Of a stretch of DNA of 51,658 nucleotides, positions 1,494 through 40,466 are shown one piece after another. Numbering within the stretch: position 1 is the stretch's first letter; every line of letters begins with the position of its first letter. Under the pieces are notes generated by a model. The model was given only the letters and a program-made list of their open reading frames with translations. It ran no database searches and was not told the DNA's origin. The stretch comes from an uncultured Leptospirales bacterium (GTDB taxonomy: Bacteria; Spirochaetota; UBA4802; UBA5550), in the NCBI GenBank assembly GCA_964654045.1, contig CAZZHU010000001.1, positions 43,572 to 95,229 of the forward strand, in the 5' to 3' direction. The position numbers and the translations under genes were made by a program.

Positions 1494-1540
1494 GGGGGGT
1501 CAGAGTAACATCTCCAAAAGCATTGGGGTCAGAGTAAAAT
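1494..1540 (+). repeat. R2 family: two direct copies, GGGGGGTCAGAGTAACA (1494-1510) and GGGGTCAGAGTAAAAT (1525-1540)
   Basis: Read directly from the sequence. The core GGGGTCAGAG is at 1496-1505 and 1525-1534. The site is intergenic, 170-215 bp upstream of the 1711 gene and on the same strand. Confidence 0.85.
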
Positions 1541-1710
1541 CAATATCGCTGTTCTTACGTTATAATGGACCATGCCGGGAATGGTTAAAATTGCACGCCG
1601 ATATGAAGTAAATATCAATAATAGAGTTATCTGAAAAAATGGGATTGCATGATTGCGCTCAGCATGGGATTGTGCCGGGAATTGAGTCCAACTCTTAATC
1701 GGATGGTAAG

Positions 1711-3039
1711 ATGAGATATCTAAAGGGATCTCTGCTGGCGGTCATTCTTGTCGCGGTATACTCGGGTAGCACCCTTTTGGCTTCTGACTTCAGTCGCAGT
1801 GTATCTTATACGCGAACACAGGGAAGGGCTGCCTCGGCCGGATCACTGGACGCGGTGTACTACAATCCTGCTGGACTGACCGGTGTCAAAGACGGATTTT
1901 ACATCGATGTCGGTTATCAGATCATGACAAAAACCACGGCGTTTGAAGTCTGGCACATGAACGGCGAGGACAAGACTCCGTCGTGGTTCATTCCCAATTT
2001 CGCGGCTGCCTATAAGAAGGGGAAAGGAGCTATTTTCGTTTCGCTCTATATGCCGGAGGGCGTTGAATTTCTAGAATTCCGGAAGGCAAAGGGGGGAATG
2101 CCGTTAATCAGCTATCTGGCCTTTGACCTCGACCCGGTCCAGACTGGAGTGCTCAGAAGCCTGGGGCTGGCGGCGAACCTGGGTTCTCTGGAGATACCGG
2201 TGGTTTCCTATGTCAAGGCAAGCAGCTACTGGCTTCAGGGGCGGCTGGGGGGATCCATTGCTATCGGCGATATGGTGTCTTTCTCCGGCGGCATTGCCTG
2301 CAGTTATTACAGGGCGGACCGCACAGCGGGTGTGGCGGGATCCGGCAGCATTGATAAAATCGAGAAGAGGGCCCTCGGATGGTCCGGGTTTGCCGGATTG
2401 ATGATCGGCTCGCCGGACAAGTTCGCCCTGATGGTTCTTTACGAAACCCAGGTGATCGCGCGCGGCACCGAAAAAAATGTAAAATACAATTATTCGCGCA
2501 TGATGGAACAGCGGTATCCTGATTCCCTTCTCATCGGATTTAAAGTGGGGACTGGAGACGGGGGATCGCTGCAGGTCTCTTACCAGGTCGCTTTTACCGG
2601 CGAGCGAAAATACGGGACAAAAAATATTCTTACCCGCAGTCACGAGTTCGGGATCATCGACTGGGCCATGATCGCCCAGAGCGCATCCGCCTGGTCGATC
2701 CTGCCGCTTGTCAGCAGCGGGAACTCCCAGAATTATAAGTATAAAAACCGCCACAGCATCGGCTTGACCATGGAATTCGAAGTGAGCGGAGTGACGCCGA
2801 GTATCGGGATATCCTACTCGACCCAGGAGAAGTATCCGCGGACCCAGAATCCCCTTGACCCGGACCTTGCCAGGGTTGGCCTGGGGGCGGGAATTAAGGT
2901 TAAAGCGTCAAATAATGTCAGTCTCGAGTCAGGGACAGCTTATTATTTTTACATCAAGGACCGCATGTTCCATAATTCGGTTAAGTTGAACAAGACGGCC
3001 TGGAGTTGGGGCATCAGCGCATCATTTAAGGCAATGTGA
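1711..3039 (+). CDS. Outer-membrane beta-barrel transport protein, FadL/TodX/OMPP1-like
   Basis: 442-aa ORF with a signal peptide (LLAVILVAVYSGSTLLA), an N-proximal NPAGL motif (AVYYNPAGLTGV), and an alternating beta-strand-like pattern through to the C-terminus. Confidence 0.5.
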   Translation: MRYLKGSLLAVILVAVYSGSTLLASDFSRSVSYTRTQGRAASAGSLDAVYYNPAGLTGVKDGFYIDVGYQIMTKTTAFEVWHMNGEDKTPSWFIPNFAAAYKKGKGAIFVSLYMPEGVEFLEFRKAKGGMPLISYLAFDLDPVQTGVLRSLGLAANLGSLEIPVVSYVKASSYWLQGRLGGSIAIGDMVSFSGGIACSYYRADRTAGVAGSGSIDKIEKRALGWSGFAGLMIGSPDKFALMVLYETQVIARGTEKNVKYNYSRMMEQRYPDSLLIGFKVGTGDGGSLQVSYQVAFTGERKYGTKNILTRSHEFGIIDWAMIAQSASAWSILPLVSSGNSQNYKYKNRHSIGLTMEFEVSGVTPSIGISYSTQEKYPRTQNPLDPDLARVGLGAGIKVKASNNVSLESGTAYYFYIKDRMFHNSVKLNKTAWSWGISASFKAM

Positions 3040-3056
3040 TTTTTTATAATTCGTTT

Positions 3057-3072
3057 ATCGATAACTATCGGT
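3057..3072 (+). repeat. R1 family copy 1: ATCGATAACTATCGGT
   Basis: Matches 15 of 16 positions of ACCGATAACTATCGGT. It overlaps the perfect 10-bp palindrome TTATCGATAA (3055-3064). It lies in the intergenic gap between convergent genes. Confidence 0.9.
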
Positions 3073-3098
3073 GATGCGTTGAAAAATACACATGCTTT

Positions 3099-3125
3099 TA
3101 AAAGTGATCAAATGTTTACCGATAA
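3099..3125 (+). promoter_or_regulatory. Possible sigma-28 (FliA)-like promoter: TAAA-N15-ACCGATAA
   Basis: TAAA at 3099-3102, an exact 15-nt spacer, and ACCGATAA at 3118-3125. The established FliA consensus is TAAA-N15-GCCGATAA. Only this R1 copy has the -35 element, and no gene lies downstream on this strand. Confidence 0.25.
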
Positions 3126-3133
3126 CTATCGGG
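3118..3133 (+). repeat. R1 family copy 2: ACCGATAACTATCGGG
   Basis: Perfect 14-mer CCGATAACTATCGG at 3119-3132, followed by a run of G. Confidence 0.9.
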
Positions 3134-3159
3134 GGGGTATATATACATTGGATTTCGAG

Positions 3160-3178
3160 TTTACTCTGACCCCTGCGG
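3160..3178 (-). repeat. R2 family copy: TTTACTCTGACCCCTGCGG on the + strand
   Basis: Core CTCTGACCCC at 3164-3173. It shares the CTCTGACCCCTGCGG extension with the copy at 18606-18620. Confidence 0.85.
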
Positions 3179-3198
3179 ATTGCCACATTGCCGGTGTT

Positions 3199-3214
3199 AC
3201 CGATAACTATCGGT
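3199..3214 (+). repeat. R1 family copy 3: ACCGATAACTATCGGT (perfect 7-2-7)
   Basis: Perfect 16-mer, 33 bp from the stop of the convergent TPR gene. Confidence 0.9.
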
Positions 3215-3246
3215 CGTTATACCCATCCTGTCATCCCCGGTTATGA

Positions 3247-3981
3247 TCATTCCTTGATCTTCCTTAAAATCTTTGCCGCGTCATCATAGCGGCCAAGCTT
3301 ACGGTACGCATTCGCAAGGGATCGGGTAACATCATTATCTTCTTCATTCATATTGCGGGCATGCTCGAGGTAGGGCAGTGCTGCGCGGGTATCACCTTTT
3401 TTTTCCAGGGCCATGCCGGTGTAATGATAAGCCTCGTAATCAGTTCTCCCTTCGACAATGGCTTTTTTCAGGTATTCAGCGGCTTTCGCGTAATTTCCCG
3501 TTTCATGGAGAGCGACGCCGTAATAGTATAGCAGGTTCGGATTCGTGCCCGGACCTTTTTTCTGGAAGACCCTTATGATGTCCCGGAATTGGCGCTGCTC
3601 GTGAAGCGATCGGATTGTGTCTTCCAACATTTTCTCGGGGATCGGTTCATCGTCCGAGGCAGCCAGTATCGCTTCCGCTCCCTTGCTTCGCTCGCCAAGC
3701 TTGATGAGGTTGAGTCCCTGAAGATTCTGAAGGTCACGGTTTTCAGGATATACCATCATCAGTTCCTTGAGGTATTTTTTAAGCTTCTCATATTCATGGC
3801 TGGTGTATAATTCTTCCGCTTTACTGACCTGCTGCTCGATGGTCAGACCCCGGACCTTTTCATAATAGATCCTCATGTAGAAGGAGTAGACTTCCTGGCT
3901 GTGAAAATAGGAATATACGCCGGCGCCGGCAAGTATGAAAAATATCAGGTAGTTTTTAATCTTAAATCTCTTTTTCGGCAT
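3247..3981 (-). CDS. TPR-repeat protein with N-terminal membrane anchor
   Basis: TPR-like helices (AEYLKKAIVEGRTDYEAYHYTGMALEKKGDTRAALPYLEHARNM, LANAYRKLGRYDDAAKIL) and a hydrophobic anchor (YLIFFILAGAGVYSYF). I took the start at ATG 3981, but the ORF stays open to 4053. Confidence 0.7.
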   Translation of the reverse strand: MPKKRFKIKNYLIFFILAGAGVYSYFHSQEVYSFYMRIYYEKVRGLTIEQQVSKAEELYTSHEYEKLKKYLKELMMVYPENRDLQNLQGLNLIKLGERSKGAEAILAASDDEPIPEKMLEDTIRSLHEQRQFRDIIRVFQKKGPGTNPNLLYYYGVALHETGNYAKAAEYLKKAIVEGRTDYEAYHYTGMALEKKGDTRAALPYLEHARNMNEEDNDVTRSLANAYRKLGRYDDAAKILRKIKE

Positions 3982-4225
3982 AATGCGTCTCCATTTCGTA
4001 TCATGGGGGTCTCCGGAGAATAATTTCAAGTATAATATTTTCAGCCGGCACATATCCGGCGGGAAGCGGAATGCACGATTTTACTGATCAGACTTTCGGG
4101 AGAATGAGGGGCATTTCAAATTAATTCCTTGAAATAAAACATGGCGGTAAATAATTTTGATTATTCCAAAAAAATTCTTTCAATTTTTAACTGTTTGATC
4201 GTTATACTATACAAAGGATACGGAC

Positions 4226-4831
4226 ATGAAACGGCTCAGAATACCAATTATTATACTTGCACTGCTTTCCTCAACTGCTCTCTTCTCGATTTCCGGTGAT
4301 GAGGCCGTGGAGAAATTCCGAAGCAGGATGCTCCGGATCGGGAAGCTGACCGGTGTTATTTCCTGGACCTCGCTTGAGGGGCAGACCTATTCCGGCAGTT
4401 TCAAGTATCTCGCCCCGGACAAGGTGTACGTGAAATTTACCAGTCCCACGGAGAAGATCCTGGTTTCCAACGGTAAGACCCTCTGGATTTACAGTCCCGG
4501 CACGAACATGTGCGGCGTACAGGAGCTCGCGAAAGGGACGACGTCGGGCGGGATCGCGGGGCTCGTCGTGGGGTATAACGGCATTGCCGCCGGTAATGAA
4601 TCGGGTTATACCATCAAGCTGAAAAGCGATGAGAAACAGTACCGGGAAATCATCCTGAGCGTTGACGGAACATATCTGCTGAGGGGCGCCATTTTCAAGC
4701 GTGAAGACGGAAGGATAATCAGCTTTTCACTTTCGGATGTAAGCGGCAAGGCTGACGTAAGCCAGAACCTTTTCAACTTCAAGGTGCCCAGGGGGGTGCA
4801 GATAGTGAAAAATCCCATGAACATAAGATAA
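4226..4831 (+). CDS. LolA-like outer-membrane lipoprotein carrier/sorting family protein
   Basis: 201 aa with a signal peptide and a LolA-like pattern (GKLTGVISWTS..YSGSFKYLAPDKVYVKFTSP..KILVSNGKTLWIYSP). Confidence 0.55.
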   Translation: MKRLRIPIIILALLSSTALFSISGDEAVEKFRSRMLRIGKLTGVISWTSLEGQTYSGSFKYLAPDKVYVKFTSPTEKILVSNGKTLWIYSPGTNMCGVQELAKGTTSGGIAGLVVGYNGIAAGNESGYTIKLKSDEKQYREIILSVDGTYLLRGAIFKREDGRIISFSLSDVSGKADVSQNLFNFKVPRGVQIVKNPMNIR

Positions 4832-4837
4832 TCTGAA

Positions 4838-5407
4838 TTGTCCACGCCAGCAAAAATATTATTTGCCCTGCTCTGCGTCTGCGTGCCGTTGCGGGCCGCC
4901 GCGGAGGAGCGTGAATTGATATATACCTTTTTCGGGCTGGTGGCTGGCGGCGGTATGAGCGAGCTGACATATACTGACTGGAATAACCTCTACAGCAAGG
5001 AGAAACATTCCGGCTACTATGCCAGCAGCGGCGTCTCCCTGTGGCTGGTTTCGAAATGGCTTGTCGGCGATTTCTCCGTCCAGTACCAGTATAATAACTT
5101 CAAGGGCATGGGCATAGTGCATAACATGTATTATACCCTGTCAGGCAGGGTGGGCATACGGATGGGTACCGTGGGGATTTTCGCGCCCGGGATCGGTATG
5201 TATTTCGAGACGCCGCCGACAAACCGTAAGTTTCGCGGCAGCGCCGGCCTCAGGGCGCCACTGGCGTTTTTATTTTACATGACGTATGACAGCATGGTAT
5301 TCCTCGACGGTTCTTTCATGTACGGATGGTATGGCATGGGTGACCGATCTACGAAAATGTTCTACGGCATATCCCTCGGTTTCATTTTCAAGGTCGGCAG
5401 AATATAA
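4838..5407 (+). CDS. Exported hypothetical protein, possibly a small outer-membrane beta-barrel
   Basis: 189 aa with a TTG start just after the preceding stop. It has a signal peptide (ILFALLCVCVPLRAAA) and aromatic-rich alternating segments ending GFIFKVGRI. Confidence 0.45.
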   Translation: MSTPAKILFALLCVCVPLRAAAEERELIYTFFGLVAGGGMSELTYTDWNNLYSKEKHSGYYASSGVSLWLVSKWLVGDFSVQYQYNNFKGMGIVHNMYYTLSGRVGIRMGTVGIFAPGIGMYFETPPTNRKFRGSAGLRAPLAFLFYMTYDSMVFLDGSFMYGWYGMGDRSTKMFYGISLGFIFKVGRI

Positions 5408-5455
5408 CCGCCCTTCGCGCAATCCTTGTTAATTTCCTTGTTCCGGTGCTATTGC

Positions 5456-7567
5456 ATGATGAAATCAAATGTCCCTTTACTAGCGGCACTACGCGTCCTC
5501 ATTTCAACCGGCAGGGAAAATCCCCTGTACAGAAAGGTCTTTGTGCCGTCTTTTTTCATCTTTCTCGCGTTATCAGGCACAATAGTGACCGGCTTCTCCT
5601 TTTTTCTCAATGGTGAGGTGCAGCCTGCCGGTGTCATGCTTCTGGTCCTGGCATGCGCGGTTTTCCCCCCGGTATACCGCAATGCCCTGAAGGTAGGCCG
5701 GGTTCCCGGGGATTCCATGATCCACGGAAATGTCGCCCGGGTAGCGGTTTTGCTGGCCCTGACGGGTGCGTTATCCGCACTGCTGTGTGTCAGGATGCAA
5801 AATACGCTGGCTGCCGATTCTCCTTCCCTCGGTCATGGGCGCTGGATCGCACAGGTTGACAGCGTGATTGAGAAACGGTATTACCGTGAAGCCGGCATAA
5901 GCTTTTATGGAAGTAAAGATGATGATTCCGCTCCGGGCGGCCACGGGGCCCCTTACCGGGGCCTGGCGCGTATAACCGGAGGGTCAATCGGCCAGGGGGA
6001 TACGATCAGGTTTTCAGCCAGGCCGGTGACGGTAACGATGCGCAACGGAGGCAGTCCATCACCGAATCATTCGCTTCTCAGGAGAGGCATCCGCTATGTT
6101 TTCTACCTTGACGGCGGATCCATCGCTGTCGTGAAACCCGGTGCTTCATACAGGGAGCGGGCCAGGTATGCCCTTGCCGGAAACTGCGACAGGCTGTTCA
6201 ACCGGGAAACATCGTCCATGGTCAAAGCACTTTATTTCGGAAATCAGGATTTCATTGCCAAGACAACCATGAACGATTTTAAGCGTGCAGGCGTATTCCA
6301 CATACTCTCGGCAGGAGGCCTTCACGTAGGCGTCATCGCGGCAATTCCCCTGTTCCTGCTGGGGATCGTCCGGATCAACCGCAGGATTATAATGGGAGCG
6401 GCGGTCATTGCCGTGTTCCTCTACCTCTGCATGACCGATGAGCCCGTCTGTCTTCTCAGGTCCTGCATCATGTTCTTTATGTTCGCGGCCCAGCGTATCG
6501 CCGGCAGGGAGGTTAATATTTTTAACACGCTTTTCCTTTCCGGCGCGGCTATACTATTCATGTTTCCTCACGAGATATTCGGCCTGGGCTTCCAGCTGAG
6601 TTACGGCGCCACCCTGGGTATACTCCTGTTCCACGGTTCATACCGCAAGACCCTGGCCTGGCTTCCGGGTTTCATTTCGAACCCGCTGGCCCTGACCATT
6701 TCGGCGCAGCTGCTGGTCCTCCCGGTCCTCCTGGTCCGGCTCAACGAGCTTAACCTGATGGGCCTTCTTTCCAATATTATCGTGGTCCCGCTCATGTCCC
6801 TGCTGCTGATCGCGTCTCTCGCGGCTCATGCGCTGTCCGCGATAACGGTGGTCGCGGAGTGGGCCGGCCGCGCCGTAAACGTGATATATGGAATGAGTGA
6901 TGCCATCGTCCGCTTCTTGTCCGGACTGGATGGTCATTTTTTTGTAACAGCTGCGGCACCGTCTCTCGTTGCCGCCTTCATTCTTCTCGCTGCGCCGCTC
7001 ATACCGTCGCTGCGGGCAAAAAAAATCATGTCGCTTTCTCTCGCGGCGGCCGTCGCTATCGCGTGGCTCACTCTCGGCGCCGGGAAACCGCGGGAATCGA
7101 TTACGGTTTTACGGCATGGAGCGGGCGTTATCATGCTGGTGAAGAAAGGGTCGTCCCTCTCCATAGCGGGACAGGTCCCGGAAAAAGGATCTATCGCTGC
7201 GGTCATGAGGATAATCGCCGCTTCCTCGCCCCGCGAGGTGGAGCTGCATATCACCGATCCCGATTACCGGAACATGGCCGGTTACACGACGCTTCTGAAA
7301 CGCCTCCCGGTGCGGCGTTGCGTTCTCTCCGATACTTTCAGGATCCGGGGCTACTCGCGCCGATTCATGGATATCCTCGAGCGGGACCGGGTGTCGCTGG
7401 TCATCCATGATTGCGGCGTCAGGGCAGGTAATGAAGATACATCTGCCGGTCAGGATTCCCCGTACCGGATATGCCGACTTTACCGGAAGGCGGCAGCCGG
7501 AGAAATCAAGCCGCCTGCCGGCGCGCTTTCTAAAAATGATGAAATTCAATATTTAACTTTACATTAA
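5456..7567 (+). CDS. comEC: ComEC/Rec2-family DNA internalisation channel protein
   Basis: Competence-domain motif FKRAGVFHILSAGGLHVGVI, many TM helices, and an OB/DUF4131-like N-terminal part. The ORF is open from TTG 5426, and I took ATG 5456 as the start. Confidence 0.8.
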   Translation: MMKSNVPLLAALRVLISTGRENPLYRKVFVPSFFIFLALSGTIVTGFSFFLNGEVQPAGVMLLVLACAVFPPVYRNALKVGRVPGDSMIHGNVARVAVLLALTGALSALLCVRMQNTLAADSPSLGHGRWIAQVDSVIEKRYYREAGISFYGSKDDDSAPGGHGAPYRGLARITGGSIGQGDTIRFSARPVTVTMRNGGSPSPNHSLLRRGIRYVFYLDGGSIAVVKPGASYRERARYALAGNCDRLFNRETSSMVKALYFGNQDFIAKTTMNDFKRAGVFHILSAGGLHVGVIAAIPLFLLGIVRINRRIIMGAAVIAVFLYLCMTDEPVCLLRSCIMFFMFAAQRIAGREVNIFNTLFLSGAAILFMFPHEIFGLGFQLSYGATLGILLFHGSYRKTLAWLPGFISNPLALTISAQLLVLPVLLVRLNELNLMGLLSNIIVVPLMSLLLIASLAAHALSAITVVAEWAGRAVNVIYGMSDAIVRFLSGLDGHFFVTAAAPSLVAAFILLAAPLIPSLRAKKIMSLSLAAAVAIAWLTLGAGKPRESITVLRHGAGVIMLVKKGSSLSIAGQVPEKGSIAAVMRIIAASSPREVELHITDPDYRNMAGYTTLLKRLPVRRCVLSDTFRIRGYSRRFMDILERDRVSLVIHDCGVRAGNEDTSAGQDSPYRICRLYRKAAAGEIKPPAGALSKNDEIQYLTLH

Positions 7568-7666
7568 TGCTATAACGATTACAGTATTGCAACGTTAATT
7601 CCGGCGACGGCAGGTGTGCCCGTTCTGCAGGGCGGCCGGCGCGATCATATCATACGAGTGCTCACG

Positions 7667-9142: not shown

Positions 9143-9148
9143 AACGCC

Positions 9149-13786: not shown

Positions 13787-13796
13787 CAGGTGGCGG

Positions 13797-17330: not shown

Positions 17331-18542
17331 TTACAGGTTCTGCTCCGACCCCATGGTGATGTCCGGCGCCGGTTCCTCGGCCGCGTCCAGGCTTCCGTGG
17401 CGGAGGGCCATGTTGATGAGGATAATGGCGGCCAGGAACATGACGGCGCACACATCGAAGGCGGCCAGGTAGGAATTCCGGTAATCGATCAGGAATCCCA
17501 GGGCCAGGGCGAAGACCATCATGCCTCCATTGAACGAGGCGGTAAAAAGCGCGTTGGCCTTGCTCCGGTCATGAGCCTCCACGATGCTTACCAGGATGGT
17601 GTTCAGGACCGGGTAGAGAATCCCGTGGGTGATCCCGTACATGACGCTCACGATGACCAGCATGATCATCGAGTCGAGAAAGTTCATGAATACGTTCATC
17701 AGAGCGCCGACCGTGAAGACCGCGATGAGCAGGGTGCTTCTTTTAATCCTGCCCGCCTGCTTGATGAAGGTGAACCTGATAAGAATGAGCACCGCAATGT
17801 ATATCATGAAAAAATAGGAGAACTTCATGCTTGTGGTGGTGCGGATGAAATTCGGGAGATACGTCACGATCACACCGAATCCGCCGCCGAATATCATGGA
17901 GACAAGGGCCATGAGGAGGAATTTCGGCCTCGCCATGAGATGCAGCGAACCCCTGCTGGTCGGCAGATTTTCTACATTATTACCGCAATCAAGGCATGGC
18001 ATGATGAAGGTGATGGCCAGGCTGAGCAGGACCATTACCACTGATAGGGAGAATATCACCTGGTGCGGATATCCGTGCGAGAGGATCATCTCTCCGAAAA
18101 AGGGGCTGATGGCATTGCTGAGGGCGGCAGCGATACCGTATATGCCGATGGCCTCGGCAGCGTCCTTGATGGGGACAATCTCGAATATGATCGAAGTGCC
18201 CAGGATCATGGCCACGGAAAAACCGATGCCGTGGATGATGCGTATGATGAGGAGCGCCCAGGTCAGCGACGTTACCAGGAGATACGAGGCATAGGCGCAG
18301 GCGAGGATCAGGTAGCCGATGCGGAGGAGTTTTATCCTGTCCCTGCCGTGCATGAGAGACCCTATGGTGATGGCGGATATAATGATAAAGATTTTATCCA
18401 CGTTATTCATTATCCCTATATACGATTCGGATGCGCCCAGGCTTTTCAGGTATACCGGGAGGAGTATATAGAGGGAATTGCCGAGGAAGAACATGAAGTT
18501 CGCCAGGGCAAGGTAATAGAATAAAGAATTATACCGCTTCAT
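17331..18542 (-). CDS. MFS transporter
   Basis: 403 aa with about 12 hydrophobic helices and an MFS loop-like GSLMHGRDRIKLLRIG between TM2 and TM3. Confidence 0.8.
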   Translation of the reverse strand: MKRYNSLFYYLALANFMFFLGNSLYILLPVYLKSLGASESYIGIMNNVDKIFIIISAITIGSLMHGRDRIKLLRIGYLILACAYASYLLVTSLTWALLIIRIIHGIGFSVAMILGTSIIFEIVPIKDAAEAIGIYGIAAALSNAISPFFGEMILSHGYPHQVIFSLSVVMVLLSLAITFIMPCLDCGNNVENLPTSRGSLHLMARPKFLLMALVSMIFGGGFGVIVTYLPNFIRTTTSMKFSYFFMIYIAVLILIRFTFIKQAGRIKRSTLLIAVFTVGALMNVFMNFLDSMIMLVIVSVMYGITHGILYPVLNTILVSIVEAHDRSKANALFTASFNGGMMVFALALGFLIDYRNSYLAAFDVCAVMFLAAIILINMALRHGSLDAAEEPAPDITMGSEQNL

Positions 18543-18604: not shown

Positions 18605-18705
18605 GCTCTGACCCCTGCGGGATTATTTTACTCTGACCCCGAATCCCGGATAGGACGCTGCCCTGGTCCCCGGTATATGCTTGTGCAAATGTTGCTCTGA
18701 CACCC
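18605..18705 (-). repeat. R2 family: three copies (GCTCTGACCCCTGCGGG 18605-18621; TTTTACTCTGACCCCG 18626-18641; variant GCTCTGACACCC 18694-18705)
   Basis: Read directly from the sequence. On the minus strand they read GGGGTCAGAG..., 64-165 bp upstream of the MFS start. The middle copy sits in the loop of the CGGGATT/AATCCCG stem (18618-18648). Confidence 0.85.
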
Positions 18706-19446: not shown

Positions 19447-20259
19447 ATGTCGGATACCTGCGTACAGGTTGAATACCGGGGTCAGAGTGCCATTGTCACC
19501 TTCAACAGGCCTGATAAGAAAAATGTCTTCAACAGGGACATGTGGTCGGGCCTGGAGCGGGCAGTGGCTCAATTGAAGGCGCATCTTCCACGGGCCATTG
19601 TCGTTACGGGGGCGGCTGATGCCTTTTCGGCGGGCTTTGACGTTAACCCCGAAAACCCGCAGATAACTATCCTGGCGGAAGCCGTTAAAAAGCGGAGCCG
19701 CACCGCTGTCGAGGAAGTGGTCCGGTATATCCGCGAGACCGTTGATAAACTGGTGGCCCTGCCGGTTCCCATCATCGCGGCCATGAACGGACCGGCTTTC
19801 GGCGGCGGCGCCGAGCTCGCGGTCCGGTGCGATTTGCGGGTGATGGACCCCGGGGCGGTGATATGCTTTTCCGAGGTGCGCCTGGGCCTCATACCGGATT
19901 GGGGCGGCGGTGTCGCACTGAGCCGGCTCCTGGGCAGATCGCCGGCCGCTGACCTGATTTTGACGGCGCGACGGGTTGGGGCTGATGAAGCATTGGGCAT
20001 GGGCCTGGTGAACCGGATAAGCAGGCCGGGAAAAGCCCTTGAAGAATCGCTTGAGATGGCAGGGATAATAGCTAAAAACGGGCCGCTGGCGGTCCGGGCC
20101 GCGCTGGAAGTGATACGCCGTTCGCCGGATATCCCCTTCAGGGATGCCCTGGAACTGGAAACCCTGGTCGCATCCGACCTGATCGCTTCGGGCGAGTGCC
20201 TTCACGGCATTACAGCCTTCCTCTCGAAAAAAGATCCTGATTTTCCCGATCCTAAATAG
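19447..20259 (+). CDS. Enoyl-CoA hydratase/isomerase (crotonase) family protein
   Basis: FNRPDKKNVFN, TGAADAFSAGFD and IIAAMNGPAFGGGAELAVRCDLRV match the crotonase oxyanion-hole motifs. Confidence 0.85.
   Translation: MSDTCVQVEYRGQSAIVTFNRPDKKNVFNRDMWSGLERAVAQLKAHLPRAIVVTGAADAFSAGFDVNPENPQITILAEAVKKRSRTAVEEVVRYIRETVDKLVALPVPIIAAMNGPAFGGGAELAVRCDLRVMDPGAVICFSEVRLGLIPDWGGGVALSRLLGRSPAADLILTARRVGADEALGMGLVNRISRPGKALEESLEMAGIIAKNGPLAVRAALEVIRRSPDIPFRDALELETLVASDLIASGECLHGITAFLSKKDPDFPDPK
19478..19488 (+). repeat. R2-like core GGGGTCAGAGT inside the crotonase CDS
   Basis: Perfect 10-bp core encoding R-G-Q-S. It may be coincidental, but it is one of nine perfect cores in the window. Confidence 0.35.
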
Positions 20260-20275
20260 GGCACGCTGTATCATA

Positions 20276-20295
20276 TTTTACTCTGACCCCTGCCG
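20276..20295 (-). repeat. R2 family copy: TTTTACTCTGACCCCTGCCG on the + strand
   Basis: Core at 20281-20290, in the 48-bp gap between the crotonase stop and the ygiQ TTG start. Confidence 0.85.
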
Positions 20296-20307: not shown

Positions 20308-22002
20308 TTGTTCATTCCGACAACCATAGAAGAAGCTAACTCTCTGGGGTGGAACCAGCTTGATATCATCCTCATCAGCGGAGACACCTATATTGACAGC
20401 CCCTACCTGGGAACGGCCGTGATTGGTCATGTGCTCATGGACGCGGGTTACCGGGTGGGGATCATAGCGCAGCCGGATACAGGGAGCGGCGTCGATATAA
20501 ACCGCCTTGGGGAGCCGCGCCTTTTCTGGGGGGTCAGCGCCGGGTCCGTGGATTCCATGGTCGCCAATTATACCGCCACGGGAAAGAGGCGCTCGCAGGA
20601 CGATTTGACCCCGGGCGGGAAGAATACCCGGCGTCCCGACCGGGCCGTTATCGTGTATGTGAACCTTATCCGCCAGCACTTCAAGGACACTGCGCCGATA
20701 GTTATCGGCGGGATCGAGGCGAGCCTCCGCCGGATCGCGCACTATGACTTCCGCGATAACAGGATACGCCGGTCGCTCCTGTTCGATGCCAAGGCGGATA
20801 TCCTTGCGTACGGCATGGCCGAGCGGACCGTGGTGGAACTGGCCGGCTGCCTGAAATCGGGCAAAGACTTCCACCGCGTGCGGGGCATCTGCTATATTTC
20901 AGGATACACAATCAGCGAATATATCAATCTTCCTTCATATGATGACGTGGCGCAGGATAAACATGAATTCATAAAGATGAGCAGGCTCTTCTTCGGCAAT
21001 TGTGACCCGTTAAGCGCCAGGGGTATGGTCCAGAATCATGGCGACCGCTATCTTATCCACAATCCCCCCGCGTTGCCCCTTTCTTCCGATGCACTGGACC
21101 GGGTTTACGAGCTTCCCTATGAGCGGGAGACGCATCCCTACTATAAAAAAATGGGGGCTGTGCGCGCCCTGGATACGATCAGGTTTTCTATTACGACGCA
21201 TCGTGGCTGTTTCGGAGAGTGCAATTTCTGCTCCATAGCGGTTCACCAGGGATGCGCTGTTATTTCCAGGAGCGAGGAATCCATTCTCAGGGAAGCGAGA
21301 AGCTTTACGAAACATGCGGGTTTCCGCGGAATAATCGCGGATATCGGCGGTCCCACGGCGAACATGTACGGGATGCTGTGCAGGAACATGGCGCGCCGGG
21401 GAGTCTGCGCGGACAAGCGCTGCCTGGGCGAGCACGTGTGCAGGGGGATGAGCGTGTCCCACAAGAGCCTGATAAGCCTCCTCCGGAAGATACGGAAAAT
21501 TCCGGGGATCAGGAGGGCCTTCGTGGCATCAGGGGTGCGCCATGACCTAATCATGGCCGATACCGGCGCGGGAGAGGAATACCTCTCGGAAATCGTGCGG
21601 TATCATGTTTCGGGACAGCTGAAAATCGCGCCGGAGCATTGCGTGGACAGCGTCCTTGACCTCATGGGTAAGCCGCCTGTTGAGGGGCTCCTGGCGTTCC
21701 GCGATTGTTTCATGCGGCTGAACAGGCAATTCCGGAAAAAGCAGTTCCTCACCTATTACCTGATCGCCGCGCACCCCGGATGCACCCTGAACCACATGAA
21801 GGCCCTGCGCGCGTTTGTGCATGACGAGCTCCACCTCGATCCGGAACAGGTACAGATCTTCACGCCTCTCCCGTCAACCTGGTCCACGGTCATGTACTAC
21901 ACGGGCCGCGATCCCTTTGACGGGAACGATATCTTCGTGGAAAGGGACACCGCCGGAAAAGAGAAGCAGAAGAAGGCCCTGGGCCGTCCCCGGAAGGATT
22001 GA
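20308..22002 (+). CDS. ygiQ: YgiQ-family (UPF0313) radical SAM protein
   Basis: The N-terminal FIPTTIEEANSLGWNQLDIILISGDTYIDSPY..GYRVGIIAQPD resembles the E. coli YgiQ N-terminus. It has the radical-SAM cluster motif HRGCFGECNFCS. TTG start with GAGGAG 7 nt upstream. Confidence 0.85.
   Translation: MFIPTTIEEANSLGWNQLDIILISGDTYIDSPYLGTAVIGHVLMDAGYRVGIIAQPDTGSGVDINRLGEPRLFWGVSAGSVDSMVANYTATGKRRSQDDLTPGGKNTRRPDRAVIVYVNLIRQHFKDTAPIVIGGIEASLRRIAHYDFRDNRIRRSLLFDAKADILAYGMAERTVVELAGCLKSGKDFHRVRGICYISGYTISEYINLPSYDDVAQDKHEFIKMSRLFFGNCDPLSARGMVQNHGDRYLIHNPPALPLSSDALDRVYELPYERETHPYYKKMGAVRALDTIRFSITTHRGCFGECNFCSIAVHQGCAVISRSEESILREARSFTKHAGFRGIIADIGGPTANMYGMLCRNMARRGVCADKRCLGEHVCRGMSVSHKSLISLLRKIRKIPGIRRAFVASGVRHDLIMADTGAGEEYLSEIVRYHVSGQLKIAPEHCVDSVLDLMGKPPVEGLLAFRDCFMRLNRQFRKKQFLTYYLIAAHPGCTLNHMKALRAFVHDELHLDPEQVQIFTPLPSTWSTVMYYTGRDPFDGNDIFVERDTAGKEKQKKALGRPRKD
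20694..20709 (-). repeat. R1 family copy 4: GCCGATAGTTATCGGC inside ygiQ
   Basis: Perfect 14-mer at 20695-20708, in frame as CCG ATA GTT ATC GGC (P-I-V-I-G). Confidence 0.9.
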
Positions 22003-23622: not shown

Positions 23623-23713
23623 GGGGGGTCAGAGTAAAAATTTGTTTGTGTGTAATAGATGCACATAATATAAAAAATGCCCACTTTACCTATTATGGTG
23701 TCAGAGTAAAAAT
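23623..23713 (+). repeat. R2 family: GGGGGGTCAGAGTAAAAA (23623-23640) and variant GGTGTCAGAGTAAAAAT (23697-23713)
   Basis: Read directly from the sequence. The site is 90-180 bp upstream of the ABC-F start, on the same strand. Confidence 0.85.
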
Positions 23714-23784: not shown

Positions 23785-23800
23785 GCCGATAGTTATCGGT
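23785..23800 (-). repeat. R1 family copy 5: GCCGATAGTTATCGGT abutting the ABC-F start codon
   Basis: Perfect 14-mer at 23786-23799. The ATG is at 23802, and no Shine-Dalgarno-like purine run lies between them. Confidence 0.9.
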
Positions 23801-30425: not shown

Positions 30426-30449
30426 GGTATCCTCACATGTCAGTTTGTT

Positions 30450-31602: not shown

Positions 31603-31655
31603 GGAAGGCCTCCTCGGGAATCAAGAAATTAAATAACAGTACCGGTGTTGATTGT

Positions 31656-31684
31656 AATGTATAACAGTATAATTGTAAAGTCAA
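31656..31684 (-). promoter_or_regulatory. Possible sigma-70 promoter of mop: TTGACT-N17-TACATT
   Basis: On the minus strand, -35 is at 31684-31679 and -10 at 31661-31656, with a 17-nt spacer, about 55 nt upstream of the ATG. Confidence 0.35.
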
Positions 31685-31760
31685 TAAATTTGATTGTTTC
31701 CTTAATAACAATGCAATGATGAAGTCCGATGCCGGCAGTCGCCGTGCGTGATTCGAGCGG

Positions 31761-33782: not shown

Positions 33783-33817
33783 GATGGTGCCGTTGTGATA
33801 GGTGCGCTACGGTCTTA

Positions 33818-34108
33818 TCACAGGATACCCTGGAGCGAGGAAAGCTGAAGAATCCGTCTAACGTTTTCAGAGCAGTTTACTATCGTAAGATTTTTATCAA
33901 TCTCTTTCAGTTTCTTTTTCAGCGTCAGGAGTGTTCGTATCCCGGAGGAGTCAATGTAATCAACAAGGGCGAGGTCAACTTCGACATCTTTATCGAAACC
34001 TGGAATGTTGGCTACCTTGTCGTTGAAGGGTTTCAGGGTCGTTGATTCCAGATTGCCTTCGATGCCTATTTTAATAATTTCGCCGGTTTGATTTATTTTT
34101 ATTTTCAT
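33818..34108 (-). CDS. STAS-domain anti-sigma-factor antagonist (SpoIIAA/RsbV-like)
   Basis: 96 aa. VDYIDSSGIRTLLTLKKKLKE contains the conserved phosphorylatable DSSG motif. Confidence 0.8.
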   Translation of the reverse strand: MKIKINQTGEIIKIGIEGNLESTTLKPFNDKVANIPGFDKDVEVDLALVDYIDSSGIRTLLTLKKKLKEIDKNLTIVNCSENVRRILQLSSLQGIL

Positions 34109-34436
34109 CTCGATCCTCTTGTATGTTGCCCCAACCTGCTTAATTCATAAGTAATATGATATTCTTTATTCTCAATCTGAAAAGTCAGGTGAGAAATATA
34201 AATCAGTCTGTAAAATATGAATAATAATCGAGCCCAAATTAATTATGAAGAATCCTAATAATAATAATGTTATATGTCAACAATCTTTATTTATATTATG
34301 CATTAATCCGTCCATCCGGTATTAAACGAAGATCCTTAAAAGCAGGGATGCTATTTTAACAATTTACATAAGGTCTTGGGCTTGACAAAAATCAGCATTA
34401 AAAAAGAGGATTTATGAAATTCAGAAGGAGGTCTGC

Positions 34437-36233: not shown

Positions 36234-36251
36234 CAACATGATGGATTCGAA

Positions 36252-36277
36252 AGCGGGCCTTCAACGGGCCCGCTTTT
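36252..36277 (+). terminator. Rho-independent terminator
   Basis: AGCGGGCC-TTCAACG-GGCCCGCT (8-bp stem) followed by TTTT, 19 bp after the acyl-CoA synthetase stop. Confidence 0.75.
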
Positions 36278-36280
36278 ATA

Positions 36281-37342
36281 TTAATACAGGATAAAATTCC
36301 CCGTCCCCAGGAGTTGGCCGCCGTCGGTCCAGACCTCAACCGTGTAATGTCCCTGGCCCTCAAGAATCAGCCGCCGCGACCAGGTCCCGAACCCTTCCTT
36401 TCTTCCGCCCTTGATTTCGCTCAGCGATATCGATAAAAGCTTTCTGCCATTATGGTACCAGATGTGATTTATCCTTTCCGCGAGGCCGCGCGGCGCAAAA
36501 ACTGATGAATAAAAATAAACTTCCGGCACTACATCAGCCTTTGCCCGGTTGAAGGGATTCCGCGGCCTGTAGTTCTCTATCTCGACGCATGCCACGGCAC
36601 GGTTAAGCTTGAGCGGCGAAGGAGGTATGAGGCTCCTGCCGAACCAGAGCAGGACAAAGAAGATAGCAATGCCAAGGAGAAATACAAGGGTGTTTTTTTT
36701 ATTTTTCAGCATGTCAATGTGAGGATATACAAATACGATGACCGTAACCGCCGCAATTCCCCCTGAAGCAAGGAGACTCCAGATGTTTCTCATCCCAAAG
36801 AGTATGGGGAAGATGAAATTGAGCACGCAAAAAAAAGTGAGCGCATAGAAGAGCGAACCCCGCAGGGGATGACGTGCCACAAGGCGCTGGTATATCTCAA
36901 ACCATCCCGCAATGACGGCAAGGCCTATCAGTACCGGCGCAAAGAGAATGTTGCGTGAGGGGAATGTCATGGATTCGAAATAGAATGGAATCACAAAAAG
37001 CAGCATGTTGTTTAATATAAAAATAAGGGCTGTATCCCAGAATGAAGCTAATATGCCGGTTTTGTGCTTTAACAGATACAATCGGAAGGTGATATAAAAA
37101 AATGCAAAAATTACCGAGACAATCACAATCGGCACATATTCGAATCCCTTTTTAAAAAGAAAAATAACAACGAGGCTTGTTGAAAAAGAGAAAAACGGCT
37201 GAAGTTTCATGATGCGCTGAATGCCAAGAGGCCAGATGTTGAAGATGGCGAGCAGATACCGGGCAATGCCTCTCAACCCGCGGGGATAGTCGCTCCGGGG
37301 TGGAATTCCTTCTGCATAATAGTGAATTGCTCTTTGTATCAT
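36281..37342 (-). CDS. DUF2914-like membrane protein
   Basis: Multiple TM helices, then a C-terminal soluble domain (HIWYHNGRKLLSISLSEIKGGRKEGFGTWSRRLI..GHYTVEVWTDGGQLLG) as I recall for DUF2914. I took the start at ATG 37342, but the ORF stays open to 37384. Confidence 0.55.
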   Translation of the reverse strand: MIQRAIHYYAEGIPPRSDYPRGLRGIARYLLAIFNIWPLGIQRIMKLQPFFSFSTSLVVIFLFKKGFEYVPIVIVSVIFAFFYITFRLYLLKHKTGILASFWDTALIFILNNMLLFVIPFYFESMTFPSRNILFAPVLIGLAVIAGWFEIYQRLVARHPLRGSLFYALTFFCVLNFIFPILFGMRNIWSLLASGGIAAVTVIVFVYPHIDMLKNKKNTLVFLLGIAIFFVLLWFGRSLIPPSPLKLNRAVACVEIENYRPRNPFNRAKADVVPEVYFYSSVFAPRGLAERINHIWYHNGRKLLSISLSEIKGGRKEGFGTWSRRLILEGQGHYTVEVWTDGGQLLGTGNFILY

Positions 37343-37380
37343 AAGTGGTCTGATATAACAAATTGTTCCGCATGTAGATG

Positions 37381-37863
37381 TCAAATAATATTTTGATAGT
37401 TATCGGTTAATATTTCTTCAAGGTTGGTGATTCCCCAGTAGATTACTAGTCTGCTTGTTCCATTGATAATTTTATATGAGAATGCATAATTATGGAATAG
37501 ATAGTTATCGGTAATTATTTCCTTTGCTTGTGAGTTGAAGATCTTAATTATATTTTTGAGATATTTTCCAACTGCAAACGCTATAATGAAAGAAAGAGAC
37601 ATTTTGCATACCTTCCGCAAATCCATGCATAATTCATATTCATCTTCTCGTAATGTTAAATGAAATGTTCGCCAATTTGATTTGTTGTCGCGTTCTTGGT
37701 ATTTAACCGGAGACGTGAAGATTGACATTTTCTTTTCGTCATCAAGAAACTGTTTTAATAGAAGGCGTATTATGCATGTTTTTGATAAGTGTAATACAAC
37801 TGATGCATGAAATAGTTCTTCCATCGTTGCTTTATTCATATTTATGGTAGTTTGTATCTGCAT
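37381..37863 (-). CDS. Orphan AT-rich hypothetical protein (160 aa)
   Basis: Strong SD (AAGGAG, then 6 nt, then ATG). G+C is about 30% (18 G/C in 37381-37440), against clearly GC-rich flanks. It contains two R1 copies, each encoding T-D-N-Y. Confidence 0.6.
   Translation of the reverse strand: MQIQTTINMNKATMEELFHASVVLHLSKTCIIRLLLKQFLDDEKKMSIFTSPVKYQERDNKSNWRTFHLTLREDEYELCMDLRKVCKMSLSFIIAFAVGKYLKNIIKIFNSQAKEIITDNYLFHNYAFSYKIINGTSRLVIYWGITNLEEILTDNYQNII
37395..37407 (-). repeat. R1 family copy 6: GATAGTTATCGGT (within TTTTGATAGTTATCGGT, 37391-37407)
   Basis: Encodes ..LTDNYQ.. at the C-terminus of the orphan ORF. The 17-mer is identical to 37929-37945. Confidence 0.9.
37500..37512 (-). repeat. 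R1 family copy 7: GATAGTTATCGGT
   Basis: Lies inside the orphan ORF and encodes ..ITDNYL... Confidence 0.9.
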
Positions 37864-37932
37864 GTTATACTCCTTGATAATACCTGTTACATGGTGTATA
37901 ACGAATAGGTGGTGAGATATTAAAATATTTTT

Positions 37933-37945
37933 GATAGTTATCGGT
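37933..37945 (-). repeat. R1 family copy 8: GATAGTTATCGGT (within TTTTGATAGTTATCGGT, 37929-37945)
   Basis: Lies in the 98-bp gap between the hrpB stop and the orphan ORF start, about 70 bp upstream of the ATG. Confidence 0.9.
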
Positions 37946-37961
37946 ATAAAAATATGCTTAG

Positions 37962-40466
37962 CTATCTTTTCCTCGGTTTGGCCTTGCTTGTGGGTTCAGC
38001 ATCGCGTGGATTGTCCGGCCAGTAATGGCGGGGATATCGGCCTTTGAGCTCTTTTTTTACCTCCGGATACGAGCGGTCCCAGAATCCATCAAGATCACGT
38101 GTAATCTGAATTGGTCTTCCGGCGGGAGATAGTAGATGGAGCAATAGCGGCACCCCGCATAGTTTGGGCGTCTCCCTTGCACCGAAAAACTCCTGTATCC
38201 TGGCTGCAATTATCGGGATGTCACCGGATTCATAATCAATTTTTTTATGAGTACCTGATGGAAGAGTGATTTGTTCCGGGGCCAGAATATCAAGACGTTG
38301 TACATTCTCCCATCCCAGGAAATTTTTCAATGCACCGAGGACCGTTTCCTCGGTAAATACGGGACCTGCCGCGTAATTCCCATATGGGATAAGCCACTTC
38401 TTAAAATCTGATTTCAACGCTCCAGGCTGAAAATCAGGCCAGTTGCTCTGACCCCCATATTTCCAAAGAAAAATAGTTTTTGCGCATAAACGCCGTGCCT
38501 GATCATTCCATGGCAAACATTTAAGTCCTTCGCAGGCAATTCGTTCTATGGTATAGTGGCGAAGCTGGTCTTCTGGCGGTATGGTCCCCCTGGTTTCTTT
38601 CATAATAAGATGCCCCAGTCGTACCAGGATCCGTGATCGCGGGGTCCATCCTTCCCATTCAACAAGATGTTCAACTTCCGGTTGCCCGGCAAGTCCGCTT
38701 TCAAGATCACCGATAGTTATCGGTGCCGCCAGGAATATGCGGGCGTCTGTTTCTCCGCCGTCCAGTTCGGCGGCAGCCAGAAAATCTGAATTGTCCAGAC
38801 TGCCGTTAAGCTTTGCTCCCCGGCCGGTGGCCAGAAGCCACCGGGAGAGGGCACCCCCGCCCGTTCTGCGCGCTGCCCGGTCCGGGTATGCCAGGAGGAG
38901 CAGTTTTCCCGCAAGTTCCGGGTCCACATCATCGGCACGGATCGTCCGTTGCTCTGACACCGCCTGCCGGATTATCCGCCGGGCCTCATCGCCAATGCGG
39001 CGGGCGGGCCCGTCCGGCATGATGCAGCGTTCTCCCCGGCTCCATACCGACCAGGCAGAAAGCCTGTCCCGGAAATCAGGGTCATCGCCGCCAATCGGAT
39101 CGCCTTCTTCCAGAATCGCGGCGGCCACTGCCGCCGTTGCGAGCCAGCCCCGTTGAGCCGCGGCCAGGACCATGCGGCCAAGGCGGGGATGTAGTCCCAT
39201 GGCGGCGGCGATACGGCCCATACCGGTTATACGGCCCTTTTCATCGATCAGGTCAAGGGCCAGCAGCAGGGCCGAAGCGCGCTCAACAGCGGCCTGCGGT
39301 GGGGATGTGAGCCATTTCAGGCCAAAGGGCGAAGACCCCCACAGGGCCGTTTCAAGGACCAGGGGCGCGAGGTCGGATCCAATTATCTCGGGCGGTGAGT
39401 ATTCCTCGCGTTTCTCTATTTCGTTCCACCATCGCAGACAGGTGCCCGGTCCCAGGCGGCCGGCCCTCCCTTTGCGTTGTTCCGCCGAAGCGATGCTGAT
39501 CGGAGCCGTGTCCCAGTGGTCCATGCCCGTGCGGGGCAGGTACCGAACCCTGCGTTCGAGGCCGCTGTCCACCACGGCGCGTACCCGCGGAATGGTAAGG
39601 CTGGTTTCAGCAACATTTGTTGCAAGGATGATCCGGTTGCTGCAGTCAGGCAGCGGGTTCAGCACCCTGCGCTGCTCTTCCGGCGGGAGCTGGCCGTGGA
39701 GCATGGAGATCCCGGCGTTGATCTCCGGATAGTTCCCGGCAATAGACTCGCGCGTGCGGTGTATCTCGCGGAACCCGGGGAGGAACACCAGCGTGTCGCC
39801 GCCGTTCTCGGCTTCAAGGAGCCCCAGCGCCTCTGCGGCCAACCGCGCGGCGCCATCCCACACTTTTTCTCCGGCGCGGGGTGGGCGGTACAGGACCCGC
39901 ACGGGATGTGCCCTTCCCGGCACGGAAATAAGGCGGATATCGCCGAAGACGGCGCGTATCTCCCCGGAGGGAAGCGTTGCCGACATGAAGAGTATTTTTA
40001 AATCAGGCCGTAGCGTTTCCCGGCAGTCCCAGGCGAAGGCCAGGGCCATGTCCGCCTGGAGGTTCCTTTCGTGGAATTCGTCGAAGATCAGGGTGCCGTA
40101 CCCTTCGAGGGACTGGTCTTTCTGTATGATGCGCGTCAGGATGCCCTCCGTGACCACTTCAAGACGCACACCCGCGCCGGTCACTGTTTCTGTCCTGGTG
40201 CGCAGTCCCACGGTCTGCCCGACCTTTTCACCGAGGATGGAGGCGATGCGGTCCGCCGCGGCCCGCGCCGCTATCCTCCGCGGCTGGAGGAGAAGGATTC
40301 TTGATCCTGTGAAAGCGGGATGCGAAAGAAGCCGCCACGGCACCAGGGTGGTCTTGCCGGCGCCGGTCTCCGCGTGGAGCAAAAGGGTCTGGTCCCGGGC
40401 GAGGGATTCTGCTATCTCCCCGAGATAGGGATATACGGGAAGGGATTGAATGTCATTTGCCGCCAT
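37962..40466 (-). CDS. hrpB: ATP-dependent RNA helicase HrpB (DEAH-box)
   Basis: 834 aa with AETGAGKTT (motif I), DEFHER (motif II), SAT, QRKGRAGR (motif VI), and an HrpB-type C-terminal extension. Confidence 0.9.
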   Translation of the reverse strand: MAANDIQSLPVYPYLGEIAESLARDQTLLLHAETGAGKTTLVPWRLLSHPAFTGSRILLLQPRRIAARAAADRIASILGEKVGQTVGLRTRTETVTGAGVRLEVVTEGILTRIIQKDQSLEGYGTLIFDEFHERNLQADMALAFAWDCRETLRPDLKILFMSATLPSGEIRAVFGDIRLISVPGRAHPVRVLYRPPRAGEKVWDGAARLAAEALGLLEAENGGDTLVFLPGFREIHRTRESIAGNYPEINAGISMLHGQLPPEEQRRVLNPLPDCSNRIILATNVAETSLTIPRVRAVVDSGLERRVRYLPRTGMDHWDTAPISIASAEQRKGRAGRLGPGTCLRWWNEIEKREEYSPPEIIGSDLAPLVLETALWGSSPFGLKWLTSPPQAAVERASALLLALDLIDEKGRITGMGRIAAAMGLHPRLGRMVLAAAQRGWLATAAVAAAILEEGDPIGGDDPDFRDRLSAWSVWSRGERCIMPDGPARRIGDEARRIIRQAVSEQRTIRADDVDPELAGKLLLLAYPDRAARRTGGGALSRWLLATGRGAKLNGSLDNSDFLAAAELDGGETDARIFLAAPITIGDLESGLAGQPEVEHLVEWEGWTPRSRILVRLGHLIMKETRGTIPPEDQLRHYTIERIACEGLKCLPWNDQARRLCAKTIFLWKYGGQSNWPDFQPGALKSDFKKWLIPYGNYAAGPVFTEETVLGALKNFLGWENVQRLDILAPEQITLPSGTHKKIDYESGDIPIIAARIQEFFGARETPKLCGVPLLLHLLSPAGRPIQITRDLDGFWDRSYPEVKKELKGRYPRHYWPDNPRDAEPTSKAKPRKR
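38445..38456 (-). repeat. R2-like core GCTCTGACCCCC inside hrpB
   Basis: Perfect core CTCTGACCCC at 38446-38455, encoding Y-G-G-Q-S on the minus strand. Confidence 0.35.
38709..38724 (-). repeat. R1 family copy 9: ACCGATAGTTATCGGT (perfect 7-2-7) inside hrpB
   Basis: On the coding strand it reads GCA CCG ATA ACT ATC GGT (A-P-I-T-I-G). Confidence 0.9.

Follow-up and report, generated by a model that had tools for sequence, protein, structure and literature searches.

Introduction

By what process has one short, invariant sequence come to lie at so many points of a single genome segment, and does it serve the genes beside which it is found? The question is raised by a stretch of 51,658 bases from an uncultured Leptospirales bacterium (contig CAZZHU010000001.1), referred to below as the window, meaning the whole of this stretch, in which a 10-nt core, GGGGTCAGAG, is dispersed in exact copies, some of them part of the longer 16-mer GGGGTCAGAGTAAAAT. 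A preliminary description had offered three identities for it: a regulator binding site, a repetitive extragenic palindromic (REP)-like element, or a component of small RNAs. The motif is enriched in the window, it is identical in sequence to terminal inverted repeats (TIRs) found elsewhere, and it is associated with transposase genes in both directions of search. We consider it probable that it represents the conserved TIR core of TIRtrons (also TIRYT, TnpA_Y1 subclass 2.1 or Group 1 RAYT, the last denoting REP-associated tyrosine transposase), scattered here in a REP-like manner.

Enrichment of the motif in the window

The exact core occurs nine times against an expectation of 0.12 from dinucleotide-preserving shuffles (n = 100), a count that 0 of the 100 shuffles reach, and the nine positions and strands (1496+, 1525+, 3164−, 18606−, 18631−, 19478+, 20281−, 23625+ and 38446−) are those of the preliminary description. 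With one mismatch allowed, 14 matches are found where 3.0 are expected, and the 16-mer at up to three mismatches gives 9 matches versus 0.34 expected. Exact 16-mers, read in a common orientation, make up three of the copies (1525, 18625–18640 and 20275–20290), four more depart from it by one or two bases (1496, 3158–3173, 23625 and 23697), the copy at 18689–18704 is a more distant variant and that at 18606 retains the core alone. Most copies are intergenic, standing either singly or as same-strand tandem pairs, and their density amounts to ca. 9–11 per 52 kb, or about one per 5 kb.

The one-mismatch variants described earlier at 18695 and 23697 are indeed present. Those at 17343, 20530 and 38952 all fall in coding sequence and are consistent with the chance level of about three such matches; the first of them, GGGGTCGGAG at 17343–17352, overlaps the final codons of an MFS gene and is likewise indistinguishable from chance. 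The same core variant is common beside RAYT genes in other genomes.

Distribution across genomes

The exact 16-mer was scanned for in one genome per species, and at least 119 stretches matched, spread over many classes and phyla and including cultured isolates. Among the matches listed, hosts in the Gammaproteobacteria comprise Rheinheimera, Microbulbifer, Marinomonas, Thalassotalea, Arenicella and large sulfur bacteria, those in the Betaproteobacteria Herbaspirillum and Methylophilaceae, and those in the Thermodesulfobacteriota Desulfobacter, Desulfogranum and Electrothrix, with further hosts in the Bdellovibrionota, the Leptospirales and one Spirochaetes metagenome-assembled genome (MAG). 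A full-text literature search with the motif sequence matched no paper. Dispersal within genomes combined with identity across phyla points to recognition of the 16-mer by a conserved, horizontally moving protein.

In the listed stretches, which were selected by the 16-mer, 166 of 178 motif matches (93%) are extragenic, though open reading frames (ORFs) occupy 82.5% of the DNA. Solo copies in other genomes are oriented without preference with respect to co-directional neighbours (17 in the same direction, 13 in the opposite one) and are found in convergent, divergent and tandem gaps alike. Several uncultured Gammaproteobacteria carry inverted doublets resembling REPINs (paired, inverted REP sequences), often with a related 35-nt spacer and also as nested or perfect hairpins, while in some genomes the motif bounds units of 67–370 bp similar to miniature inverted-repeat transposable elements (MITEs). 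Two other readings of these units were rejected: inspection of the inverted pairs found no RYYYAAC/GTTRRRY core sites of an integron attC, and a coding repeat, suggested by the open frame in the 35-nt spacers, does not suit units that are 93% extragenic with many orthologous copies in related MAGs.

Inverted 16-mer doublets stand 230–460 bp upstream of 16S rRNA genes in two uncultured Gammaproteobacteria (L003, 5144–5216; L012, 5764–5830), the former stretch having additional copies in an rRNA operon spacer. Very dense populations are present in stretches L102, L089, L030, L042, L061, L110 (MAG RHO3_bin_19) and L151, and peak densities reach 12 cores in 8 kb, or nine within 3.7 kb surrounding a single RAYT gene. 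For a repeat of the Group 1 type such densities amount to REPIN-like abundance, at odds with the low averages that the literature gives.

Association with Y1/HUH transposase genes

Clustering of the ORFs of all 16-mer-bearing stretches, carried out to find recurrent neighbours, yielded one recurrent family directly beside the motif in the listed stretches, composed of proteins of 231–245 amino acids. In about 10% of these stretches a Y1/HUH transposase gene (230–245 amino acids) adjoins the motif and is flanked on either side by inverted copies. The family matches PF01797 (Y1_Tnp) in Pfam with an E-value of ca. 5e-15 and scores 72–76 bits against the NCBIfam model REP_Tyr_transpos (REP-associated tyrosine transposase), just below its cut-off of 80. 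Its members share the signatures NHVH (the HUH motif), WE/WQ, YIELNP and WSS. The sequence AATAATTGGGGTCAGAGTAAAATTAA is located 50–90 bp upstream of the transposase gene and its reverse complement ca. 20–110 bp downstream; inverted copies flank a subclass 2.1-type gene in L069, L010, L008, L073, L016, L051 and L086. In TIRtrons the upstream core lies in sense orientation, 43–175 nt before the transposase start, and some transposase genes (L136, L147, L150, L156, L198) are preceded by same-strand tandem copies 17–62 bp apart, an arrangement like that of the tandem pairs in the window.

The association also holds in the reverse direction. For a reciprocal test, 80 homologous genes were taken from JGI metagenomes by protein similarity, without regard to the motif. 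The pattern GGGGTC[AG]GAG occurs in sense orientation within 200 bp upstream in 23 of 73 cases, inverted downstream in 17 of 71 and on both flanks in 13 of 80, where chance would give fewer than 0.001 per flank. Among annotated genes, the 'transposase' WP_130108377.1 of an Iodobacter fluviatilis plasmid has the core on both flanks, at −80 and +63. The preliminary description had proposed looking for a RAYT/IS200-like transposase elsewhere in the genome; such genes adjoin the motif in other genomes, and none is encoded in the 51.6 kb window. Of the options it had offered, the REP-like or RAYT-linked one is favoured by these results, since inverted copies of the identical 16-mer bracket genes of Y1 transposases (IS200-like, RAYT-related) in many other genomes.

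The Iodobacter unit (L201) is a complete TIRtron on plasmid pl1 (NZ_CP025783.1, 4419–6308), a mobilizable MOBP plasmid, where it lies beside a HipA toxin gene; TIRtrons could plausibly spread horizontally on such a plasmid. In L086 (4859–5282) the 3' end of the RAYT gene and its TIR are present in three tandem copies with a 204-bp period.

Probable assignment to the TIRtron/TIRYT class

The protein signatures listed above, together with a length of ca. 238 amino acids, define TnpA_Y1 subclass 2.1 (Table 1 of Quentin et al., 2018, PMC6006769), which the same authors equate with the Group 1 RAYTs (Bertels et al., 2017, PMC5581495) and with the TIRYT genes (Di Nocera et al., 2013, PMC3733652). 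The TIRs of TIRYT elements share the sequence GGGGWSAS and form 'moderately abundant' families as singles, dimers or groups (PMC3733652). This consensus, i.e. GGGG[AT][CG]A[CG], is fitted by GGGGTCAG, as is true of all nine exact cores. The motif therefore resembles TIRtrons in its core, in the inverted copies flanking genes and in the NHVH/YIELNP/WSS proteins of ca. 238 amino acids, and it resembles TIRYT repeat families in its extra copies as singles, dimers or groups, its wide taxonomic spread and the presence of some units on plasmids. Since this arrangement matches that of TIRtrons and TIRYT families, the window repeats most likely belong to a class that is already known but little studied, to which the window adds a new instance.

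Differences are also apparent. Group 1 flanking 16-mers occur ca. 12 times genome-wide on average (PMC5581495), a figure far exceeded by the density of ca. 9–11 copies within 52 kb seen here. Unlike described TIRtrons, the window copies consist of the core only, form no inverted dimers and are known here without a transposase gene tied to the genome.

In common with canonical REP sequences, the bacterial interspersed mosaic elements (BIMEs) and REPINs of Group 2 and 3 RAYTs (E. coli TnpA-REP, Pseudomonas), the motif is a short extragenic repeat flanking a single-copy Y1/HUH gene, and REPIN-like inverted doublets of the same 16-mer exist in certain Gammaproteobacteria. Unlike them, it has no stable G+C-rich palindrome, its conserved sequence tends to lie in a loop rather than a stem, and it is common to several phyla, whereas canonical REPs are lineage-specific. 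The GT[AG]G tag of canonical REPs is absent, GTAG/GTGG not being conserved beside the core in 175 instances or in the window. Nor is the canonical 20–40 bp imperfect palindrome found, stems in the window being at permutation level and those elsewhere being short, AT-rich and confined to ca. 30% of copies. For want of both tag and stable palindrome, the motif is not a canonical REP.

Most likely, then, the repeat is a REP-like selfish or domesticated element rather than a regulatory site of particular genes. If it works as IS200/IS605 TnpA and E. coli TnpA-REP do, a Y1 enzyme would recognise the motif when replication exposes it as single-stranded DNA, nick it through a covalent tyrosine link and then rejoin the strands, with the result that short motif-bounded segments may be copied or moved. 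For this genome we infer a cognate enzyme, its authorship of the copies and its cut site.

A possible hairpin around the core

Beside transposase genes the 10-nt core is constant and the bases 3' of it vary by lineage (TAAAATTAAA, TCGATTGAT, CCGATTTAAA, TAAAAACTC, TAACAATTC). A short inverted repeat often encloses the core at these places, its 5' arm abutting the core and its 3' arm beginning 2–4 nt after it. The arms also vary by lineage yet stay complementary (ATCAAT/ATTGAT, TAATT/AATTA, GAGTTT/AAACTC, ATTTAAA/TTTAAAT, AATAAT/ATTATT). Perfect Watson-Crick stems of at least 5 bp are present in 21 of 68 distinct TIRs versus two in a mirror-repeat control and three in a slid control. In an ungapped alignment of 71 TIRs with a fixed register, 58% of cells pair compared with 45% in shuffles, and the covariation score of 0.351 (against 0.191) is equalled in 0 of 500 shuffles, with the signal peaking at slide 0. 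From these pair counts, the only basis of the hairpin claim, we conclude with moderate confidence that beside transposase genes the core tends to occupy the 12–14 nt loop of a co-varying, AT-rich hairpin of 5–7 bp, which may present it to the enzyme.

Display of the core in a hairpin loop is not described in PMC3733652, PMC6006769 or PMC5581495. If genuine, it recalls the hairpin-plus-guide sites of IS200/IS605 and E. coli REPs less than it does the nick sites of HUH Rep proteins at the rolling-circle origins of circoviruses, geminiviruses and plasmids, where 9–10 conserved nucleotides occupy the loop of a hairpin with variable stem beside an HUH gene. Unlike those origins, the motif goes with a Y1 transposase as its enzyme class; with stem evidence that is moderate, the likeness is one of resemblance only.

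The window copies in their gene context

Gene context was taken from gene calls and from Pfam and NCBIfam scans. The first copy, GGGGTCAGAGTAACAT (1496–1511, + strand), begins 18 bp past the stop of an OmpA-family gene (15–1478) and is enclosed by a 7-bp inverted repeat, GATGTTA/TAACATC. In tandem with it at a spacing of 29 bp is an exact 16-mer, GGGGTCAGAGTAAAAT (1525–1540, +), 186 bp upstream of an outer-membrane-like gene (1711–3039) whose product has a signal peptide and is porin-like. Beyond that gene, GGGGTCAGAGTAAACT (3158–3173, −) lies between the convergent gene ends at 3039 and 3247, with a second dispersed motif, CCGATAACTATCGG, on each side (3119 and 3200). The gene at 1711–3039 (442 amino acids), bracketed as it is by inverted copies, was considered as a transposase and rejected, given its signal peptide, its beta-barrel-like sequence and its lack of any Y1 or DDE match.

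Three minus-strand copies share the divergent MFS/nitroreductase intergenic region. The core-only copy GGGGTCAGAGctgtac (18606–18615) precedes the start of the MFS gene, at 18542, by 64 bp, an exact 16-mer (18625–18640) follows 25 bp from it, enclosed by GGGATT/AATCCC, and the variant GGTGTCAGAGCAACAT (18689–18704) is the third. Another exact 16-mer (20275–20290, −) occupies the 48-bp gap between the stop of an enoyl-CoA hydratase gene (20259) and the start of a radical-SAM gene (20308), antisense to both. In the divergent TetR/ABC-F intergenic region, GGGGTCAGAGTAAAAA (23625–23640, +) is enclosed by T6/A5, and the variant GGTGTCAGAGTAAAAA (23697–23712, +) follows it by 72 bp, 105 bp upstream of the ABC-F start. 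Short complementary arms thus enclose the individual copies 1496, 18631 and 23625.

Two exact cores lie within genes, in the enoyl-CoA hydratase gene (19478–19487, +), where the core encodes Y-R-G-Q-S, and in hrpB (38446–38455, −), where it encodes Y-G-G-Q-S, so that both are read in one common frame, Y-x-G-Q-S. The upstream flank of the hrpB core resembles that of copy 1496. HrpB shows no insertion, deletion or other length change relative to its E. coli counterpart, and therefore the status of this core as an element copy is uncertain; that of the core at 19478 is uncertain too.

Several details of the preliminary description can be adjusted accordingly. An intergenic location applies to most copies, the cores at 19478 and 38446 being the intragenic exact ones. 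Tandem spacings measure 29, 25, 64 and 72 bp, within the range first given. The extension to GTAAAA(A/T), which had been ascribed to six copies, belongs to five (1525, 18631, 20281, 23625 and the variant 23697), since 1496 continues as GTAACA and 3164 as GTAAAC. The segment CCCCTGC(G/C)G, thought common to minus-oriented copies, is found at 3164, 18606 and 20281 and is missing from the remaining ones; the CGCAGGGG extension is likewise common to three minus-strand copies. Orientation toward the downstream gene holds at the three loci for which it was noted (upstream of the 1711, MFS and ABC-F genes) and fails at 3164, between convergent ends, and at 20281, which is aimed away from the radical-SAM gene, whose start is 18 bp off.

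Evidence weighing against the assignment

A number of observations speak against the TIRtron assignment or against parts of it. The window copies have little in common past the 10–16 nt core and lack the ATAATT...TTAAAT flanks of Thermodesulfobacteriota copies, and the window holds no inverted partners or doublets of the 16-mer at up to three mismatches. Stems around the window copies are not significant, with a mean best stem of 2.92 versus 2.76 in permutations. Neutral decay of old insertions would not be expected to leave perfect cores amid unrelated flanks, and two divergent promoter regions hold five of the nine intergenic copies, an unusual placing for classical REPs. Beyond the window, RNAalifold predicted no consensus hairpin on the 71 TIRs, and it is because no thermodynamically favoured consensus is found that the hairpin is rated as moderate.

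The enzyme itself presents further difficulties. No REP-like structure was reported for subclass 2.1, whose C-terminal domain was described as helix-turn-helix-like (DnaA_C-like) (PMC6006769). Three C-terminal tails gave no helix-turn-helix family in Pfam at E-values up to 10, the published claim having used more sensitive profile comparisons. The window contains no Y1 transposase gene. Contigs of X1 and X2, two sequencing runs holding the window, were compared with two RAYT loci. The first locus has no matching contigs in either run; the second is matched in X2 by RAYT-like fragments (…LGRHYVRYFN… and …AYIDLNP…), present at a depth of 6–8 versus 20–28 for the contigs of the window, about a third, so that they are not attributable to this genome. 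Contigs of related runs, compared for presence or absence of individual copies, break at repeat-bearing intergenic regions.

Alternative explanations

The alternative that survives best, itself unlikely, is an operator of a host transcription factor, with tandem direct-repeat sites at transporter genes (MFS, ABC-F, porin-like) constituting a regulon. Its appeal comes from the five copies in two divergent promoter regions and the two upstream of the 1711 gene, all aimed at the downstream gene, from a core that is perfectly kept while the flanks differ, as for a selected binding site, and from the TetR gene adjoining one cluster. An operator does not explain why an identical 16-mer flanks transposase genes as inverted repeats and recurs in several phyla, nor the solo copies of other genomes, with their 17 to 13 split of orientations and their occurrence in all intergenic contexts. 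Within the window, too, one copy lies between convergent genes (3164), another runs antisense to the operon genes whose 48-bp gap it occupies (20281) and two are intragenic (19478, 38446), and spacings of 25–72 bp do not fit known direct-repeat operators. It is these orientations and locations that tell against the regulator-site option of the preliminary description, which had itself named a match to a known REP/MITE family as a refuting outcome; by that criterion the regulatory reading is refuted. At the two divergent-promoter clusters a host operator is possible.

Less credit still can be given to a promoter element, with TAAAAT as its −10 box, or to the motif belonging to a small RNA or a 5' leader. 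The motif does terminate in TAAAAT, and the upstream copy of TIRtrons, placed in sense 43–175 nt before the transposase start, could carry the promoter of that gene. Against this, the distance of a −35 box shows no information content or conserved bases, as the preliminary description had noted for the window, and neither a sigma-70-like promoter (−35/−10 at 16–18 bp) nor an intrinsic terminator (GC-rich hairpin and T run) is predicted at any copy. Rfam 15 at gathering score gave 0 matches in the window, and the matches in 17 other stretches with the motif were confined to rRNA, tRNA and tmRNA, so that a small RNA lacks support; a search for RNA-seq runs of this organism returned none. Orientation with respect to genes is random elsewhere.

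Weakest of all, and hardly credible, is the idea that the copies stem from a MITE of a classical DDE transposon or represent a DNA uptake sequence: Tn3-family inverted repeats likewise begin with GGGG and the motif bounds the 67–370 bp units of some genomes, but the sole recurrent neighbour gene is of the Y1/HUH type with no DDE transposase, the window is without inverted pairs and target duplications, and uptake sequences are lineage-specific and common in genes where this motif is 93% extragenic and cross-phylum.

A second dispersed motif

The motif CCGATAACTATCGG is a 6-2-6 dyad, in many cases lengthened to GTTTACCGATAACTATCGG; at no more than one mismatch it matches the window six times (3058–3071, 3119–3132, 3200–3213, 20695–20708, 23786–23799 and 38710–38723) versus 0 expected, with looser copies near 37395, 37500 and 37928. 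One copy stops 2 bp short of the ABC-F start codon, and within 3119–3213 the motif flanks the GGGGTCAGAG copy at 3158–3173 on either side. Among the matches listed, the only other stretch with both motifs of the window is L120, a Spirochaetes MAG (JAFGBT010000013.1; 1760–1794 and 4628–4710), which is also the only other one with the CGCAGGGG extension; there GGGGTCAGAGTAAAAT with this extension lies between two CCGATAGTTATCGG copies. These findings suggest that the two repeats are paired in a lineage-specific way and, because extension and second motif are both shared with L120, that the window derives from a related, spirochaete-like lineage.

Significance

Group 1 RAYTs (TIRYTs) form the largest and most widespread group of RAYTs, and we know of no biochemistry for them. 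Published surveys have reported for this group either no associated repeats or moderately abundant ones (PMC6006769, PMC3733652). The window is a stretch of genome in which the TIR core is dense, and the same 10–16 nt are kept from Spirochaetes to Gammaproteobacteria. For annotation, the motif is better labelled a REP-like repeat than a promoter or operator of the adjoining transporter genes, and as a conserved core it offers a specific, inexpensive substrate on which this enzyme class could first be assayed for binding and cleavage.

A more specific proposal is put forward tentatively, and we think it rather less probable than its negation. According to it, GGGGTCAGAG would be a cross-phylum nick or recognition site, displayed to subclass 2.1 enzymes within the loop of a hairpin that is small and variable, much as at Rep origins and unlike the hairpin-plus-guide arrangement of IS200 and REP systems. 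The family would have expanded to REP-like abundance in some lineages, this one and several uncultured Gammaproteobacteria among them, and the perfect cores, those in frame within genes included, would reflect ongoing enzyme-driven rewriting or host selection and not decay. If true, a loop-read, expanded family of this kind would contradict the view that only Group 2 and 3 RAYTs own large repeat populations.

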